Part shown: positions 136 to 62,790 of the stretch, piece after piece | Layout of the letters: each line of letters opens with the position of its first letter | Numbering within the stretch: position 1 is the stretch's first letter | Origin: Alphaproteobacteria bacterium | GTDB lineage: Bacteria; Pseudomonadota; Alphaproteobacteria; JABAAW01 | DNA length: 62,790 nucleotides | Direction: 5' to 3' | Assembly: GCA_014237925.1 (NCBI GenBank) | Contig: JABACB010000002.1 | Location: 62,028-124,817, forward strand | Notes under the pieces: model-generated | What the model was told of the DNA's origin: nothing | Databases searched by the model: none | Seen by the model: the letters and a program-made list of their open reading frames with translations, nothing else | Made by a program: the position numbers and the translations under genes

Positions 136-1779
136 ATGGCAAGCATCACCATGAACGGAAAGAAAGGAACGAAGGCTTCGGGTAAGAAAGCCTCCGCTTC
201 TGCAGAGCATCGCCCCTACGGTATCGGACGCTGGCTTTTCTCGACGAACCACAAGGATATCGGAACGATGTATTTGGTCTTCGCCATCATGGCGGGATTG
301 ATCGGCGGTGGTATCTCTTTTCTCATGCGCTTGGAGCTGCAACAGCCCGGCGTGCAATACTTCCTCGGTGCCGGCGATCCCGACGGACACATGTGGAATG
401 TGTTCATCACCGCGCACGGCTTGATCATGGTCTTTTTCACTGTCATGCCCGCCTTGATCGGAGGGTTCGGCAATTGGTTCGTCCCCCTCATGATCGGCGC
501 GCCCGACATGGCTTTCCCGCGCATGAACAACATCAGTTTTTGGCTGCTCGTTCCCGCCTTTCTGCTGTTGCTGCTTTCTCTTTTTGTAGGCGGCGCAGGC
601 ACGGGTTGGACGCTCTATCCCCCCCTGTCTGGTACGCTCGGACATTCGAATCCTTCCGTGGATCTCGCCATCGTCGCCATGCACTTGGCGGGGATCTCCT
701 CCATTCTCGGCGCCATCAACTTCATCGTCACCATCTTCAACATGCGCGCGCCAGGCATGACGCTTCGTGTTCTGCCCCTCTTCGCATGGGGCCTGCTGAT
801 AACAGCTTTCCTGCTCATTATGGTCATGCCCGTCTTCGGCGGCGCGATCACGATGCTGCTCGCCGATCGCAACTTTGCGACAGCCTTCTTCGTGCCTGAG
901 GGCGGCGGAGACCCGCTTCTGTTTCAACACCTGTTTTGGTTTTTCGGACACCCCGAAGTCTACATCATGATCCTGCCCGCCTTCGGCATCATCAGCCATA
1001 TCGTCTCGACCTTCTCGCGCAAGCCCATCTTTGGTTATCTCGGCATGGTCTCTGCCATGGTCGCCATCGGATTCTTGGGATGCATCGTTTGGGCGCACCA
1101 TATGTTCACCGTCGGCATGGGATTTTTTCTCAAGCTCTACTTCAGCGTCGGAACGATGATCATCGCCGTGCCGACGGGCATCAAGATTTTCAGCTGGCTC
1201 GCCACCATGTGGGGCGGATCGATCCGATTCTCCGTGCCGATGTTGTGGGCGCTCGGCTTCATCGGTCTCTTCACCATCGGCGGCGTGACGGGGGTCGTCC
1301 TTGCGCTCGGAGGCGTCGATGTGCAGCTGCACGACACCTACTATGTCGTCGGACACTTCCACTATGTTCTCAGCCTTGGCTCGGTGTTCGCCGTCTTCGG
1401 CGGCTTCTACTATTGGTTTACCAAGATGAGCGGCTGCGTCATTCCTGAGTGGGCAGGCAAGCTGCATTTTTGGACAACCTTCCTCGGCGTGAACATAGCC
1501 TTCTTCCCGATGCACTTCTTGGGACTGGCGGGCATGCCGCGCCGCTACATCGATTACAACGAAGCTTATGCGGGATGGAACGCGGTCGCTTCCTACGGCA
1601 GCTATCTTTCTGCCACCTCCACATTGTTCTTCGTGACGACCGTTGTCGTCGCTCTGTTGCGCGGCAAGCGGAAGGTCGCCGACAATTATTGGGGAGCGGG
1701 CGCGACCACGCTGGAGTGGACGGTCTCGACACCGCCGCCTTTCCACAGCTTTTCGACGCCGCCGCGCATTTCGCGCTGA
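136..1779 (+). CDS. coxA: Cytochrome c oxidase subunit I (aa3 type)
   Basis: [23 protein letters not shown] and HFHYV heme/CuB ligand motifs; AGGAG upstream. Confidence 0.98.
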
Positions 1780-1784
1780 CCCGA

Positions 1785-2765
1785 ATGGCGAGCGCGAGCC
1801 GTTCTTCCCGTCCTCTTACCTTGGAGGCACCCGTAGCGGCGGGGTTGCGCGTCCCTTCTGCTCGACCCTCCGAGGTCGGAGATTTCCTCGCGCTCACCAA
1901 GCCGCGCATTCTGTTGCTGACAACCTTCACCGCCGCCTGCGGCATGGTGCTGGCGGACGGCGGCAACCACATTGTTTTGAACATCATCGCCTTGCTCGCC
2001 GTCGCCATGGGAGCAGGGGGGGCTGCCGCCTTCAACATGTGGTACGACCGCGACATCGACCGACTCATGCTACGCACGCGCGCAAGAGCGGTCGCTTGTG
2101 GAACGATCGCGCCTTCCGATGCGTTTGTGTTCGCTATGATCCTCTCGCTACTGGCGTTCGCCTTGCTGGGGCTTGCAGGGGGGTGGGGGGCGGCGCTGTT
2201 GCTGGGCTGCACAATTCTCTTCTATTCGGTTTTCTACACGATGTTTCTGAAACGGCGCACCGTCTTCAACACCGTCGTCGGAGGTACTGCGGGTGCAGCA
2301 CCGCCCTTGATCGGATGGCTTGCCGCTTCCCCTTCGTCGCAGGCGAGTTTTCTCGATCCTCTCTTGCTGTGTGTGCTGATCTTCCTATGGACACCGCCGC
2401 ATTCGTGGGCATTGGCGCTCTTACGCCGCGACGATTACAAACGTGCGCGGCTGCCTGTGCTGCCTGTCGTGTATGGAGAAAAAAAGACCAAGCGGCAAAT
2501 CTTCCTCTACTCTCTGACGCTCCTGCCGCTCGCGCCAGCCTTCGCTTGGCTTGGAGGCGCGAGCTGGATCTACGGCGGAATCGCCCTTGTTCTCTCGTTG
2601 CGCTTCGTCTTCTATGCGTTCATGACGAACAGCAAAAAAGAAACCTCCTTACGCTCTGCAGGAGCCTTGTTCGGCTTTTCTATCGTCTATATGGTTTTGA
2701 TGTTCGCCTTGCGCATCGTCGACCATGTTGCGTTGCAGCAGAGCTGGCACTGGTTTTCGTTCTGA
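1785..2765 (+). CDS. ctaB: Protoheme IX farnesyltransferase (heme o synthase)
   Basis: ALTKPR, NMWYDRDIDRLMLRTRAR, LKRRT, FLWTPPH and DDYKRARLPVLP motifs. Start set at ATG 1785 inside ORF 1449..2765. Confidence 0.95.
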   Translation: MASASRSSRPLTLEAPVAAGLRVPSARPSEVGDFLALTKPRILLLTTFTAACGMVLADGGNHIVLNIIALLAVAMGAGGAAAFNMWYDRDIDRLMLRTRARAVACGTIAPSDAFVFAMILSLLAFALLGLAGGWGAALLLGCTILFYSVFYTMFLKRRTVFNTVVGGTAGAAPPLIGWLAASPSSQASFLDPLLLCVLIFLWTPPHSWALALLRRDDYKRARLPVLPVVYGEKKTKRQIFLYSLTLLPLAPAFAWLGGASWIYGGIALVLSLRFVFYAFMTNSKKETSLRSAGALFGFSIVYMVLMFALRIVDHVALQQSWHWFSF

Positions 2766-2771
2766 CGGGCT

Positions 2772-2912
2772 ATGAGAGACGAAGGGCAGGGTAAAAAAGA
2801 CAATCGCGTGCGCTGGACAGAAAGCAGGCGGCGTAAGAACAGAGCCTTGCTGGCTTTGCTGTTGTTGTTCGTCGCGGTGGTCTATGCCTTGTCGATCGTC
2901 AAGTATTTGTGA
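2772..2912 (+). CDS. Small membrane protein (46 aa) between ctaB and ctaG, CoxF-like
   Basis: Hand translation MRDEGQGKKDNRVRWTESRRRKNRALLALLLLFVAVVYALSIVKYL*. Basic patch then one TM helix; GTGA overlap with ctaG. Confidence 0.75.
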   Translation: MRDEGQGKKDNRVRWTESRRRKNRALLALLLLFVAVVYALSIVKYL

Positions 2913-49129: not shown

Positions 49130-49436
49130 GCGCGTTTCTGCGAAACGCGCCTGGAGCAGGAAGAGGCTGCGCGCTTGCGCGCAGTTTTTTGCGGGAAAAC
49201 TTCGTCCCCCCTCAGCCCCTCCGCGTGCGCTAGCGCACAGTTTTTTTGCGGGGGAACTTCGTCCCCCCACACCCCCCCGCGTGCGCTAGCGCACGCGACG
49301 CGCGACCGCCTTTTTGTCGCCCAAAGTCCCGTTCCTTGTCTTCTTCCTTGTCCTCCCCCCCGCGCGCGCTGACGCACGCGACGCGCGACCCGCCTTTTTG
49401 TCGCCCAAAGTCCCGTTCCTTGTCTTCTTCCTTGTC
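49130..49436. repeat. Hairpin array: 9-bp stem, 56-bp unit x2, ~83-bp unit x2, 20-bp perfect palindrome
   Basis: GCGCGTTTC-TGC-GAAACGCGC (49130-49150); GGGGGA-ACTTCG-TCCCCC; CGCGTGCGCTAGCGCACGCG (49278-49297). Confidence 0.92.
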
Positions 49437-59677: not shown

Positions 59678-60064
59678 TCACGATTTCGTGATGTCCGAGG
59701 TCGCAATTTCCGACTTCGTGATGTCCGACCTCGTGATTTCATAGAGGTTCGAAAACTGCTCGATCGAAAGAATCTTCGGACCCTCCCAATCCTCGACAGG
59801 ACTGTAAGGGTGGCGAAAGCGCACTTCGAAGCGTACATGCGTGATTCCTCCGTTGTCGTGAAAGCCCAAAATCCTTGCTGTCTCCACCGTCGAGTCCTTG
59901 CGCACCCGTCGAAAGCTGCTGCCGGCTCTCAGATAGTAAGGCTCCACAGGAGTCCGTGTCTTTTCGTCGGGCTGGAACAGAGTCTGTTTGCGATTCGAAG
60001 ACACTTTTTGTTCAAGCCAGTCCTTCAGCACGCGCGTGTGTTTCTTGAGAGGAAGCGGAGTCAT
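59678..60064 (-). CDS. Hypothetical protein (128 aa)
   Basis: Globular beta-rich core YLRAGSSFRRVRKDSTVETARILG..HVRFEV..EGPKILS; (SDITK)-type repeat tail. Confidence 0.65.
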   Translation of the reverse strand: MTPLPLKKHTRVLKDWLEQKVSSNRKQTLFQPDEKTRTPVEPYYLRAGSSFRRVRKDSTVETARILGFHDNGGITHVRFEVRFRHPYSPVEDWEGPKILSIEQFSNLYEITRSDITKSEIATSDITKS

Positions 60065-60270
60065 AGAATTGCCTTGGGAGTTGACTTGGAAGATGCCTTG
60101 GAGATGGTAGGCGGATGTCCGCCGAGCAGGAGGGATTCTTGCTTTGTCTCTATCAAAAAAAGTGCCAAGATGGGAAAACAGCGGACAAGCGGCAAGGCAA
60201 GTAGCAAGGCAAGCAGCAAGGCGAGCAGTAAGGCGAGCAAGCAGACAAGCGACCACAACAGGAGAGAACG

Positions 60271-60615
60271 ATGACCTTTGTCGTGACCGAAAAATGCATC
60301 AAGTGTAAGTATCAAGATTGCGTCGAGGTTTGTCCTGTCGATTGTTTCTACGAGGGAGCAACGATGCTGGTGATCCACCCTGACGAGTGCATCGATTGCG
60401 GCGTTTGCGAGCCGGAGTGTCCGATCGGGGCGATCCTTCCCGACACAGAAAAGGACGCGGAGGCGTGGCTGGGCGTCAATCGCGAGTACAGCGAAAAGTG
60501 GCCGAACATCACGCGCAAGGGCGAGGTGCCGAGCGACGCCAAAGAGTGGGAGGAGGTTGCCGACAAGTTCAAAAATCACTTCTCCGACAAGCCCGGAAAA
60601 GGCGACGAAGAGTGA
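60271..60615 (+). CDS. fdxA: 7Fe ferredoxin
   Basis: [18 protein letters not shown] and [12 protein letters not shown]; SD AGGAGAG. Confidence 0.97.
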
Positions 60616-61628
60616 GGCTTCTTCGGCGAGCGCAGAAGATCGAGCTTGCAGAAAAACGGACAAGCAGGGAAGGAAGCGGGGGAGGAAGCGGGGGAGGAAG
60701 CGGGAGTCTGCGCAGAAGCGCGGACAAGCTTACGCAGAGACTTGCGCCAAAACCAAAGGACGAGGTTGTAGGAAAGAACTATCGTTTTTACGCTCGATCC
60801 TGCGAGCGCATGCCTGAGTGCGCGGACGGCTCGATCGCCTTGACGATCACCTCGCCGCCGTACTGGAATGCGATCGACTACGACTTGCACGCCGCCCAAG
60901 ACGACTCTTCGCGCGAGGCTAATTCGGTCTGGTACCGAGAGCGCGCCTACAGCGGATTCGGCGATACGCTGGAGGCGTATCTCGACAAGATTGGCGTGGT
61001 GTTCACCGAGGTGTTGCGTGCCACCAAGGCGGGCGGGTTTTGTGCGATTGTCGCAGGCACGCTTCTTCACGAGCGCAAGCACATTCCGACGCCGATGTTA
61101 ATCACTGAACGCATGCTGCGCTTGGGTTGGGAGTTTCATCAAGACATCGTTTGGAACAAGGTGACGGGCGGGGTGACTCGCGCGGGCTGCTTCATCCAGC
61201 GTCCCAGGGCGGGCTATTACTATCCAAACATCATGTGCGAGTACATTTTGGTCTTTCGCAAAGAGGGGACGCATTGGCGAGACAAGAAAGACGCGCTTGC
61301 GATCGACGATGTGTTCAAGCGCGATATCGCAAACAACATTTGGCACATTGCGCCTGTTCCTCCTCGGACGATCGATCATCCTTGTCCCTACCCTGAAGAG
61401 CTGGTGCGTCGTCTGGTGTTGCTCTATTCGTGTGAGGGCGACGAGGTGTTGGATCCGTTCTTGGGTAGCGGACAGACGGCACTAGCAGCGAGGCGTTGCG
61501 GTCGGTTGTCTGTCGGTTACGACATCGAACCACACTACATTGCTTTGGCGGAGCGGCGAGTGCTGTCTCCTCCTGAGTGTCGCAAGTACCAGCTTCTGCC
61601 TTTTGTCGAGAGGGTTGCGAGCGGATAG
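60612..61628 (+). CDS. DNA methyltransferase, beta class (SPPY, probably m4C)
   Basis: TSPPYW (motif IV) precedes [10 protein letters not shown] (motif I); HPCPYPEEL. In-frame GTG overlaps the fdxA stop (GTGA). Confidence 0.9.
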
Positions 61629-61654
61629 GCAATGAGGGGAGGGAACGAATTTCT

Positions 61655-62790
61655 TCACAAAGCGAGGTTGATGTTGGCGTTTTCCAGCGAGCGTTGAGAA
61701 AAAAGATAGCGTCCGCCCGTCATGAAGCCGAGCGCTCGCCAGTCGAGGCGGTTCAGTTCTTCGCAAATCTCTGCCAAGTTGTGAATCTTCTTTTTGGGGA
61801 AAAGCGCCAAGACCGAGCCGTCGAACGCTTCTGCCGTTGAGATGAAGAAAGGTTTTGTGATGCGTGTCTTGCCGTTGACATAGATTCGCGCGCCCTCGCG
61901 TTCGGGGTATTTTCTGCCCCATTGCCACCAGTTGTTTTCGTCGAATGCTCGTATGCGTCTTTGTAGCAGGGTTTGTTTGTGCGGGAGGAGGGCTCGGCTG
62001 AGCTTGTTGTAGATCATGCGTTTGAGATCGCCTGTGGTTCGCGTTTGCGAGCAGACGAAGTCTTGGTTTCCGTGTGGCGATTCGTAGATGTGGTCTGCTC
62101 CGCTGACGGCGCCCACTTTCACTTCGAAGGCGTCTCCCAGTCTGTGAGCGAGGTGCGCTTTTTTGGGGGAGAAGGTGAGTTGTCCTTCGTGGCAGAGGAA
62201 GGTTCTGCCGTCCGCCATGCGGGGTGAGGTTTTTCCTTTTTGGAAGCGCCATACGGCGCAGTTGGGAGTTGCGTTGTGGAAGAGTTTTGTATCGCCGTAG
62301 TCTTGGAAGTGGGTGATGGTTCCTGTTTTGTGTAGGTATTCATTGAGGTTTTTGGCGCTGGTGGCTTTGGTGAAGTCTCTGGGAGTGATGAAGATGAGTT
62401 CTCCGTTGTCGTTGAGGTGGAGGGTCGCTTTGTAGATGAAGAAGAGGTAGAGGTTCGTTCGGTTGTCGAAAAAGGTTGGAGAGGGGGAGGGTAAGGGAGA
62501 GGATGTTTTTTGGAGGGATTTCAGGAAGGCGGTAATTTTTGTGTGTGTTGTGGGGAGGATATCTTGGAAGCGGACATAGGGTGGATTTCCGATGATGGTA
62601 TCGAACTTTTGGGAGAGGGGATAATCGAAGAAGTCTGTGTTGATATGGTTGATATGGCGTGTGTTGCTGGAGTGATTAAGGGACGGGTCGATTTCTAGGG
62701 CTGTGATGGGGATATTTTGTGCGAGGGGGGAATGGAGGAAGATATTTTTGCCGCTTGCGGGTTCTAGGATTTGTCCGTGGTTGTGTTTGA
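61655..62790 (-). CDS. Amino-DNA methyltransferase, gamma order (NPPY), 5' end beyond the window
   Basis: Hand translation is open from 62788: ILEPASGKNIF..ALEID..TDFFDY..FDTIIGNPPYVRFQDI..NLYLFFI..GELIFITPRDF, continuing into ORF 61655..62218. Confidence 0.88.
   Translation of the reverse strand, partial: KHNHGQILEPASGKNIFLHSPLAQNIPITALEIDPSLNHSSNTRHINHINTDFFDYPLSQKFDTIIGNPPYVRFQDILPTTHTKITAFLKSLQKTSSPLPSPSPTFFDNRTNLYLFFIYKATLHLNDNGELIFITPRDFTKATSAKNLNEYLHKTGTITHFQDYGDTKLFHNATPNCAVWRFQKGKTSPRMADGRTFLCHEGQLTFSPKKAHLAHRLGDAFEVKVGAVSGADHIYESPHGNQDFVCSQTRTTGDLKRMIYNKLSRALLPHKQTLLQRRIRAFDENNWWQWGRKYPEREGARIYVNGKTRITKPFFISTAEAFDGSVLALFPKKKIHNLAEICEELNRLDWRALGFMTGGRYLFSQRSLENANINLAL

Follow-up and report, generated by a model that had tools for sequence, protein, structure and literature searches.

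The extreme G/T-rich, C-poor composition at the right edge of the window, by which we mean the whole stretch of 62,790 nucleotides that was analysed, very probably represents one arm of a mirror-image footprint centred on hairpin repeats. About 200 clusters of such repeats per genome in this genus each skew the 1–2 kb on both of their sides. The footprint is visible in base composition, in synteny, in its anchoring on the repeats, in its independence from gene orientation, and in a polarised substitution spectrum. We compared the assembly that holds the window (G000) with two genomes of the same genus, G003, a single contig of 1.9 Mb, and G004.

A preliminary description of this DNA had reported an extreme G/T bias climbing toward the right edge, and counts in 200-nt windows bear this out. 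G and T predominate on the strand that runs 5′ to 3′ toward the site, its AT skew is negative, and within the final 1 kb its GC skew climbs from +0.2 to +0.68: ≈+0.2 at 61801–62200, +0.43 at 62201, and +0.64 to +0.68 at 62301–62790. C drops to 16–18 per 200 nt near the edge, and the last ≈600 nt hold ≈17 C versus 80 G per 200 nt. A recount of 62461–62520 gave A15 C1 G29 T15, identical to the G29 and C1 reported earlier. This C-poor, G/T-rich stretch exceeds chance. The binomial probability of at most one C in 60 nt is 8.5e-8, so that ≈0.2 windows are expected genome-wide, and 628 were observed; an absolute skew of at least 0.62 occurs in only 14 of 17,489 windows of 600 nt.

Table 1. Features of the skewed arm at the right edge of the window
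Feature	Position	Strand	Remarks
Ferredoxin gene (Fer4 + DUF3470)	60271..60615	+	Outer limit of the arm
Decaying tail of the G/T-rich arm	59900..62200		Plus-strand GC skew ≈+0.1 to +0.3; background reached ≈2.5–3 kb from the contig end
N4/N6 DNA methyltransferase	60387..61628 (listed ORF)	+	PF01555, E 1.4e-32
Eco57I-family (gamma-class, NPPY) N6-adenine DNA methyltransferase	61655..62790 (ORF 61655..62788)	−	PF07669, E 1e-17; truncated near codon 25, where the contig ends
Peak of the G/T-rich, C-poor arm	62201..62790		Plus-strand GC skew +0.43 to +0.68, AT skew −0.15 to −0.43; stops at the contig end
End of contig C222 (124,817 nt)	62790..62790		Flip centre and mirror arm lie beyond; joined to C354 by synteny

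Both methyltransferase genes within the arm carry the bias. The 5′ half of the minus-strand gene, to which M.BseCI, CamA, and M.TaqI align from the NPPY motif onward, is depleted of G on its coding strand. Just six of its first 190 codons end in G, the same number as the preliminary description had estimated, and their commonest residues are T, L, N, I, P, F, K, S, and H, among which are all six (H, N, P, T, I, and S) that it had named as enriched. The composition changes along the gene, and its 3′ half is near normal. The listed ORF of the plus-strand methyltransferase overlaps the ferredoxin gene, so that the true start must lie later, near 60735–60830. Its third codon positions go from C30 G23 T11 A10 in the first block to G29 T20 C16 A8 in the last 73 codons (genome average, C 0.40, G 0.30, A 0.15, and T 0.15), so that its 3′ end is indeed G/T-ending, as had been noted. 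Because G/T-ending codons rise toward the 3′ end of this gene, the bias is not tied to the direction of genes; the strand running 5′ to 3′ toward the repeat turns G/T-rich whatever genes it carries, and the minus-strand methyltransferase has consequently lost most G in its 5′ half.

The composition had also led to the prediction that a strong site, a contig end, or the end of a linear DNA lies within ≈1 kb to the right. Contig C222 does end at the right edge of the window, and a site is found as well; a linear end is not supported, since the locus is internal in G003. Synteny places contig C354 next, beginning with hairpin repeats (1–200) followed by grpE (215..1099, minus strand), dnaJ (1150..2298, minus strand), and dnaK. 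The first 215 nt of C354 fold as hairpins (z −5.7), and after the repeats a mirror C/A-rich flank spans ≈1 kb, with a GC skew of −0.44 to −0.55 and 73–88 C versus 21–29 G per 200 nt across bases 200–1100. The start of C354 is thus probably the opposite arm of the footprint at the end of C222, across an assembly gap. A search of the G000 assembly for a bridging contig found none, and the 24 codons that the minus-strand methyltransferase lacks at its start, also sought there, were not found.

Gene order in both relatives runs dnaJ, grpE with a G/T-rich 3′ end, hairpin repeats together with a variable low-GC insert, and the methyltransferase with a C/A-rich 5′ end. Both arms are therefore carried in G003 and G004, and the second arm in G000 is C354:200–1100, tied to C222 by synteny only. 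Across the site in the relatives, skew is +0.57 in grpE and −0.61 in the methyltransferase, whose coding strand at these orthologous loci holds ≈80 C and ≈16 G per 200 nt, as in G000. Immediately upstream of the methyltransferase start in G003 is a cluster of GC-clamped hairpin repeats 371 nt long (L010:11135–11505), at a position equal to ≈75–450 nt past the window edge. Its counterparts are L004:358–507 in G004 and, by synteny, C354:1–200 in G000, in which the centre is unassembled. Inspection of the adjoining sequence, which had been proposed as a check, thus revealed both the mirror C/A-rich flank (the 3′ end of grpE in G003 and G004, the 5′ end of C354 in G000) and the repeat motifs (in the G003 centre and at the start of C354). 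In this case, composition alone sufficed to predict a site that is unassembled, together with its mirror flank.

Were the minus-strand methyltransferase a recent acquisition, its bias could simply be the codon usage of a donor, an outcome that, together with the absence of a flip downstream, had been named in advance as fatal to the prediction. The gene is of a restriction-modification type and adjoins low-GC foreign inserts, as this explanation would have it. The gradient nevertheless lies inside the gene, orthologues at the same place in all three genomes share it, and its mirror image appears in grpE, a core gene on the far side of the site, so that neither a uniformly atypical composition nor its absence from core neighbours is observed. 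The inserts that are truly foreign, which differ between G003 and G004 and whose ORFs gave no matches in a Pfam search, are also without the strong skew of the flanking genes. We regard a donor origin of the bias as extremely improbable.

Artefacts of assembly or sequencing at the ends of contigs would account for the observation that, among 58 contigs of at least 4 kb, the terminal 1–2 kb is rich in C at 5′ ends and in G at 3′ ends. The same skews are internal to the single contig of G003, however, and so this explanation is scarcely credible; single-cell amplification damage at contig ends was dropped as a candidate for the same reason. Contigs end at skewed sites because the assembler breaks in dispersed repeats. 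Repeats lie at 10 of 162 contig ends versus 1.3 expected, and the first 44 nt of C354 recur at other contig ends. For annotation and assembly, the footprints carry a warning: contigs break at the repeats, gene finders based on codon usage can place genes of an arm on the wrong strand, and screens for horizontal transfer that use composition will pick out native genes there.

The pattern at this locus recurs throughout the genomes. The repeats are short, GC-clamped, imperfect hairpins that are intergenic, arranged in mosaic clusters, and present in hundreds of copies, features that they share with the GC-rich palindromes of REP/BIME elements; G003 has 200 clusters with a median length of 250 nt and stems of 8–22 bp. 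To our knowledge, REP elements have not been reported to skew their flanks, and a literature search for such an effect found no report of it. When averages were anchored on the G003 repeat clusters, and not on skew, mean GC skew at 100–300 nt was +0.33 to the left of the clusters and −0.34 to their right, falling to zero by 2–3 kb, and the repeat-anchored profiles of G004 and G000 match this one. Flips are correspondingly of one polarity, G-rich and then C-rich. At a skew difference of >0.7, G003 has 49 of these and 0 of the reverse, and at >0.6 it has 101 versus 5; G000 has 22 versus 1, the sole reverse flip being a run of N. A copy of the site's repeat is found within 300 nt of 72 of the 101 G003 flips, where ≈13.5 would be expected by chance within 600 nt. 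Skew does not depend on the length of the repeat cluster (Spearman 0.12, p 0.2). Altogether, the footprints drive GC skew to 0.3–0.7 over roughly 30% of the genome.

The claim that the bias is independent of orientation also holds beyond the two methyltransferases. Flips of the same polarity occur between convergent Pfam-confirmed genes (gltX and an HlyD-like gene, dxs and an aldehyde dehydrogenase gene) and between divergent ones (an MlaD-like gene and class II RNR), and mean arm skew is +0.18 for genes pointing away from the site (n = 24) and +0.16 for genes pointing toward it (n = 23). These data make a transcription-linked skew, whether through G-poor transcript 5′ ends or through deamination of the non-template strand, very improbable. 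The G-poor strands are coding strands of gene 5′ ends both here and at ≈8.5 kb of the window, as such a skew would require, but coding strands are G-rich at the 3′ ends of the convergent genes, amplitude is equal in both directions, and the sign does not follow the transcribed strand. Selection on mRNA, or avoidance of R-loops or Rho, at the G-poor 5′ ends of divergent genes was dropped on the same evidence from convergent 3′ ends and equal amplitude.

Replication skew likewise changes sign at a point, and the polarity seen here is terminus-like. Replication, however, produces two flips per chromosome with an amplitude of a few percent, whereas the genomes studied here have 101–200 flips of one polarity, with amplitudes of up to 0.7 and a reach of 1–2 kb. 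The number of flips within the 1.9 Mb of G003 is not that of an origin or a terminus, and the left and right arms of the footprints are symmetric in both replication arms apart from ≈0.06, which is the size of the global skew. A search for dependence of the footprints on fork direction found only this global offset.

To characterise the underlying changes, we polarised substitutions on the G003 branch with G000 as the outgroup, within 600 nt of repeats and read on whichever strand points toward the repeat; polarised counts at the single locus were too few and were replaced by these genome-wide, three-genome counts. Raised classes are C>T (2.1–2.5-fold), A>G (1.8–2.2-fold), C>G (1.7–2.9-fold), and G>T (1.5-fold), and lowered classes are G>A (to 0.7–0.8 of background), T>C (0.46–0.49), and G>C (0.3–0.6). 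Flips defined in G004 give the same spectrum. C>N and A>N are thus in excess on the 3′-ending strand, mirrored across the site and over 1–2 kb, as resection to single-stranded DNA would leave them. No strict sequence context was found for the substitutions, C>T being up 2–3-fold in all contexts, and a motif-specific deaminase (APOBEC- or DddA-like) was dropped for this reason; a lack of mismatch or uracil repair was also dropped, since mutS and mutL were found, as were two UDG-family genes. The summed rate of each complementary pair is only 1.0–1.7 times background (≈1.5 times for the C>T pair). Mutations have not simply been added: the complementary classes fall below background, and either erasure of the changes of a removed strand or a fixation bias is needed.

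The explanation that we find best, and somewhat probable as a whole, is a repeat-centred, two-armed footprint with recurrent 5′ to 3′ strand removal. The hairpin repeats would repeatedly give rise to DNA ends or nicks, and of the two strands the one with its 5′ end at the site would be removed 5′ to 3′ for up to 1–2 kb. The surviving, 3′-ending strand would be exposed as single-stranded DNA and then serve as the template for resynthesis, so that its damaged or mispaired bases would be fixed (C>T, A>G, C>G, and some G>T) and the changes of the removed strand erased. Strand removal as the mechanism, for which geometry and spectrum argue, is in our judgement plausible but just short of probable. 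An addA-like helicase-nuclease gene and recJ are present. Against strand removal, an AddA-type enzyme degrades both strands near a break, and the peak would then not adjoin the site; the 2–3-fold drop of the complementary classes demands removal in a large share of generations; and the G004 lineage has almost no substitution asymmetry, even though it carries the same repair genes as G003. The maker of the ends at the repeats is also only putative: sbcD, the gene of the classic hairpin-cleaving nuclease, was searched for in five genomes of the genus and not found, which weighs against the mechanism and led us to drop cleavage of the hairpins by SbcCD. The overall explanation must further accommodate the 44 of 124 isolated clusters in which just one arm is clearly skewed.

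Nicks on both strands at extruded hairpins could produce a similar outcome with no double-strand break, if nick translation or long-patch 5′ to 3′ excision replaced the strand that starts at the site and used the other as template. The depressed complementary classes and modest pair sums look more like changes shifted from one strand to the other than like additional damage, the failure to find sbcD agrees with nicking, and excision-repair tracts are similar in length to the 1–2 kb reach. Tracts of nick translation by polymerase I, however, are usually much shorter and so too short for this reach. Recurrent nicks are known to destabilise repeats (PMC11626148). The nicking enzyme would be just as putative, and C>T exceeds what pure redistribution allows, which suggests true single-stranded exposure. 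We consider nicking rather unlikely.

Less likely still is a bias in fixation, either through repeat-initiated recombination in which heteroduplex mismatches are repaired with a strand preference (strand-specific biased gene conversion) or through selection for the skew itself. This would produce the simultaneous rise and fall of complementary classes, and the sites do recombine, given that G003 and G004 carry different foreign inserts. A preference for the resident strand alone makes no new G or T, however, and we see no apparent benefit in a skew that takes no account of the direction of genes and changes conserved proteins. On balance, we judge fixation bias to be improbable.

Returning to recurrent strand removal at the repeats, we tentatively propose a broader view, in which the repeats would be recurrent break or nick sites of a putative structure-specific nuclease, landing pads for foreign restriction-modification genes, and engines of strand-directed change that remodel ≈30% of the genome, essential proteins included, with an activity that is strong in G003 and nearly off in G004. 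Because activity differs so sharply between these sister lineages, a comparison of genomes could reveal the factor responsible. If this is true, hundreds of fixed sites impose a local, two-sided, strand-specific mutation regime on a bacterial lineage, strong enough to yield GC skews of 0.3–0.7 and to alter the amino-acid make-up of neighbouring proteins, among them the core proteins GrpE and ribonucleotide reductase. Such sites would constitute a natural evolutionary record of bacterial strand removal and resynthesis at DNA structures, comparable to that of human meiotic hotspots, and could be located from sequence only.

There are several systems with which the footprints may be compared. The heavy strand of vertebrate mitochondrial DNA is G/T-rich through deamination of C and A in a single-stranded phase of replication. 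Like the strand pointing at the repeat, the exposed mitochondrial strand acquires C>T and A>G, there along a gradient that follows the time spent single-stranded. Mitochondrial DNA has one replication-driven gradient per genome, whereas the footprints number in the hundreds and are local, two-sided, and independent of the replication arm. Heavy-strand deamination is the subject of a review (PMC3269012).

In yeast, damaged single-stranded DNA at double-strand breaks is reportedly hypermutable, as Yang et al. are said to have found in 2008. Strand-coordinated mutation clusters have been described as well (Sakofsky et al. 2019, PMC6786661). These systems resemble the footprints in that coordinated changes switch strand across a break and cytosines are damaged in resected single-stranded DNA; they differ in being experimental or somatic single events, often with added deaminases or chemicals and with clear motifs, whereas the changes described here accumulated over evolution and follow no strict motif.

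The closest geometry is that of human meiotic double-strand-break hotspots, which display a mirror-image mutation asymmetry over ≈2 kb on each side, with C>N and A>N on the 3′-tailed strand (Hinch et al. 2023, Science, PMC7615360). The strand that 5′ to 3′ resection leaves single-stranded is the forward strand in the left arm and the reverse strand in the right arm, and in the footprints it is the corresponding strand on which C>T, C>G, and A>G are raised. Unlike the footprints, the human hotspots belong to a eukaryotic germline, arise from programmed SPO11 breaks, and are recorded as de novo mutations that barely change composition. The bacterial counterpart, by comparison, involves ≈200 hairpin-repeat sites with a putative break-making enzyme and depressed complementary classes, and its skews extend over nearly a third of the genome.

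The window spans C222:62028-124817, and its right edge coincides with the end of that contig (124,817 nt), in keeping with the preliminary description, which had placed a strong site or a contig end just to the right. GC skew climbs toward this edge from +0.2 through +0.43 to +0.64-0.68 in 200-nt windows; over the last 1 kb, C falls from ≈45 to 16-18 per 200 nt as G rises to 77-83 and T to 58-70. The reported extreme at 62461-62520, with 29 G and a single C, is reproduced by direct count (A15 C1 G29 T15). Sixty-nucleotide windows with no more than one C have a binomial P of 8.5e-8, yet 628 are present in the genome; the C-poor edge pattern is real and recurrent. The contig end truncates the minus-strand methyltransferase, which aligns with M.BseCI, CamA, and M.TaqI starting at the NPPY motif, at about codon 25. 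Its first 190 codons include just six ending in G, as had been estimated, and are rich in T, L, N, I, P, F, K, S, and H; the last 187 are ordinary. Codon counts likewise uphold the described increase of G- and T-ending codons toward the 3' end of the plus-strand methyltransferase.

The mirror C/A-rich flank predicted beyond the edge exists on a separate contig of the source assembly (G000), C354, which would adjoin C222 judging by synteny, the only link between the two; no bridging contig was found in the G000 assembly. The flank has 73-88 C and 21-29 G per 200 nt and fades by about 2 kb. Repeat motifs were also expected here, and the first 215 nt of C354 fold as hairpins (z -5.7), one of them common to the center of the orthologous site in G003, a same-genus genome in one 1.90-Mb contig. 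The first 44 nt of C354 are found again at other contig ends, and its first 25 nt, a hairpin-repeat unit at the presumed site center, match twice in the hairpin array near 49.2 kb of the window, so the edge site and that flip share a repeat family. The gene order in G003 is dnaJ, grpE, a 1.7-kb insert (34-40% GC), a 371-nt GC-clamped hairpin cluster, and the Eco57I-family methyltransferase; skew reaches +0.57 at the grpE 3' end and -0.61 in the methyltransferase 5' half, and the flip is therefore present. A second relative, G004, has the same frame, with repeats adjoining grpE, a different low-GC ORF, and a frameshifted methyltransferase. The low-GC (32-40%) cargo differs between the two genomes, has no Pfam match in either, and was not found in G000; the site looks like an insertion hot spot for restriction-modification-type genes. 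The AT skew farther along C354 is a coding effect of the Lys/Glu/Asp-rich tail of DnaK, unrelated to the footprint.

Locations of features at the edge site and its orthologs (L003 and L010, stretches of G003; L004, stretch of G004)
Feature	Location	Strand	Remarks
Eco57I-family NPPY-type N6-adenine methyltransferase	window 61655..62788	-	PF07669, E 1e-17
N4/N6 methyltransferase	adjoins the preceding gene	+	PF01555
Presumed SAM-binding motif I, Eco57I-family methyltransferase	window 62720-62760	-	EPASGKNIF, residues ILEPASGKNIFL
Perfect 12-nt tandem array	window 60640-60700		GGAAGCGGGGGA x3
Matches to first 25 nt of C354	window 49214-49268 (= C222:111214-111295)		two matches
grpE (G000)	C354:215-1099	-	then dnaJ, dnaK
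C/A-rich flank	C354:200-1100
dnaK 3' end	C354:2400-3000	-	AT skew -0.55 to -0.74, GC skew near-normal
Methyltransferase ortholog, G003	L003:1431-2753		intact, 440 aa
Methyltransferase ortholog, G004	L004:1395-2804		frameshifted, ORFs 1395..1649 and 1773..2804
Cargo, G003	L010:9487-11134		376-aa NPPF-motif methyltransferase-like ORF and 174-aa ORF
Cargo, G004	L004:734-1417		unrelated 227-aa ORF

Contig ends throughout G000 are C-rich at the 5' side and G-rich at the 3' side over 1-2 kb, which first raised the suspicion of an end artifact; the same skew at the orthologous locus in single-contig G003 speaks against it. The genome-wide trend arises because hairpin repeats are over-represented where G000 contigs break (10 of 162 ends versus 1.3 expected). 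Nor does the codon usage of a donor explain the bias, since it forms a gradient inside one conserved gene whose 5' half has ≈80 C and ≈16 G per 200 nt of coding strand in G003 and G004, as in G000.

An explanation from G-poor 5' gene ends fits the edge site and the divergent pair at ≈8.5 kb of the window (an MlaD-like gene and a class II ribonucleotide reductase). It fails, however, at convergent Pfam-confirmed genes, between which the polarity is identical: gltX and an HlyD-like gene, dxs and an aldehyde dehydrogenase, and an aldehyde dehydrogenase and a phosphoesterase (Obg, EamA, and a class-V aminotransferase were also Pfam-confirmed in that search). When gene strand was assigned solely from the unskewed distal portion of long ORFs, mean arm skew was +0.18 for genes running away from the site (n = 24) and +0.16 for those running toward it (n = 23), which, with the convergent flips, bears out the orientation independence first claimed. 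Between the two replication arms, the left- and right-arm skews shift by only about 0.06, equal in size to the global skew. Within skewed arms on all G000 contigs, a codon-usage gene caller tended to favor whichever strand was G-rich, and automated annotation may assign wrong strands or starts near the repeats in genomes of this kind.

Sharp flips run from G-rich to C-rich in 22 of 23 cases in G000, the single exception being a run of N. The same order outnumbers its opposite in G003 by 49 to 0 at a skew difference >0.7 and by 101 to 5 at >0.6. The repeat from the site center forms 200 clusters in G003, one of which lies within 300 nt at 72 of the 101 flips (chance expectation about 13.5 within 600 nt). 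A profile anchored on repeats rather than flips, and hence free of selection by skew, gives mean plus-strand GC skews at 100-300 nt of +0.33 to the left and -0.34 to the right, with AT skews of -0.15 and +0.17; all of these decay to zero by 2-3 kb, and the profiles of G004 and G000 are the same. Sequence no more than 1.5 kb from a cluster makes up about 31% of G003. Two clear arms flank 75 of 124 isolated clusters, a single clear arm flanks 44, and five have none; amplitude shows no dependence on cluster length.

We polarized substitutions in a three-way alignment of about 0.5 Mb, with G003 and G004 as sisters (89-93% identity) and G000 as the outgroup (81-83%). For the G003 lineage, up to 600 nt from a repeat and on the strand directed toward it, rates relative to sites >4 kb away are raised for C>T (2.1-2.5-fold; complement G>A, 0.7-0.8), A>G (1.8-2.2; T>C, 0.46-0.49), C>G (1.7-2.9; G>C, 0.3-0.6), and G>T (1.5; C>A, about 1.0), all ratios returning to 1 by about 2.5 kb. 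The asymmetry persists with flips defined by G004 composition and is thus not an ascertainment effect. The rise in C>T extends to all sequence contexts and thus gives no indication of a motif-specific deaminase. The asymmetry is pronounced on the G003 branch and almost absent on the sister branch; G004 still carries skews, and it has fewer, shorter repeats (10.4 kb per 800 kb versus 57.8 kb per 1.9 Mb). The two genomes are alike in the candidate repair genes checked.

We infer a mechanism of strand removal starting at the repeats. On both sides, the strand beginning at the site would be removed 5' to 3', erasing its changes, and the surviving 3'-ending strand would be exposed and then copied, so that its deaminated C and A, abasic sites, and mispairs become fixed. 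Such removal and copying would account for the rises, the falls of complementary classes, and the 1-2 kb reach. The starting lesion may equally be a two-ended break or paired nicks, and a strand-specific fixation bias is possible. Five genus genomes (G000, G001, G003, G004, and G006, one of them single-contig) have mutS, mutL, two UDG-family genes, an addA-like gene, and recJ; no sbcD homolog was found in them. In geometry and mutation classes, the footprint matches what is seen beside human meiotic break hotspots (PMC7615360). Among known cases, eukaryotic break-associated asymmetries and the mitochondrial heavy-strand bias come closest, and a full-text literature search found no bacterial description of repeat-centered mirror skews. 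New here are the predicted off-window flip with its mirror arm, the skew-independent repeat-anchored profile, the depressed complementary classes, the sister-lineage contrast, and the repair-gene inventory.

The N-terminal third of the Eco57I-family methyltransferase in the window is no longer alignable to solved relatives. Related methyltransferases usually have small or glycine residues at the corresponding motif I positions; the presumed motif in the G003 ortholog reads EPASGNNAF. G>A on the coding strand would turn Gly, Asp, or Ser codons into K and N codons. The G003 copy also carries a His/Asn-rich tandem insert, HNNHVHHNNHVHH, and the 12-nt array in the window lies between a ferredoxin gene and the plus-strand methyltransferase domain.
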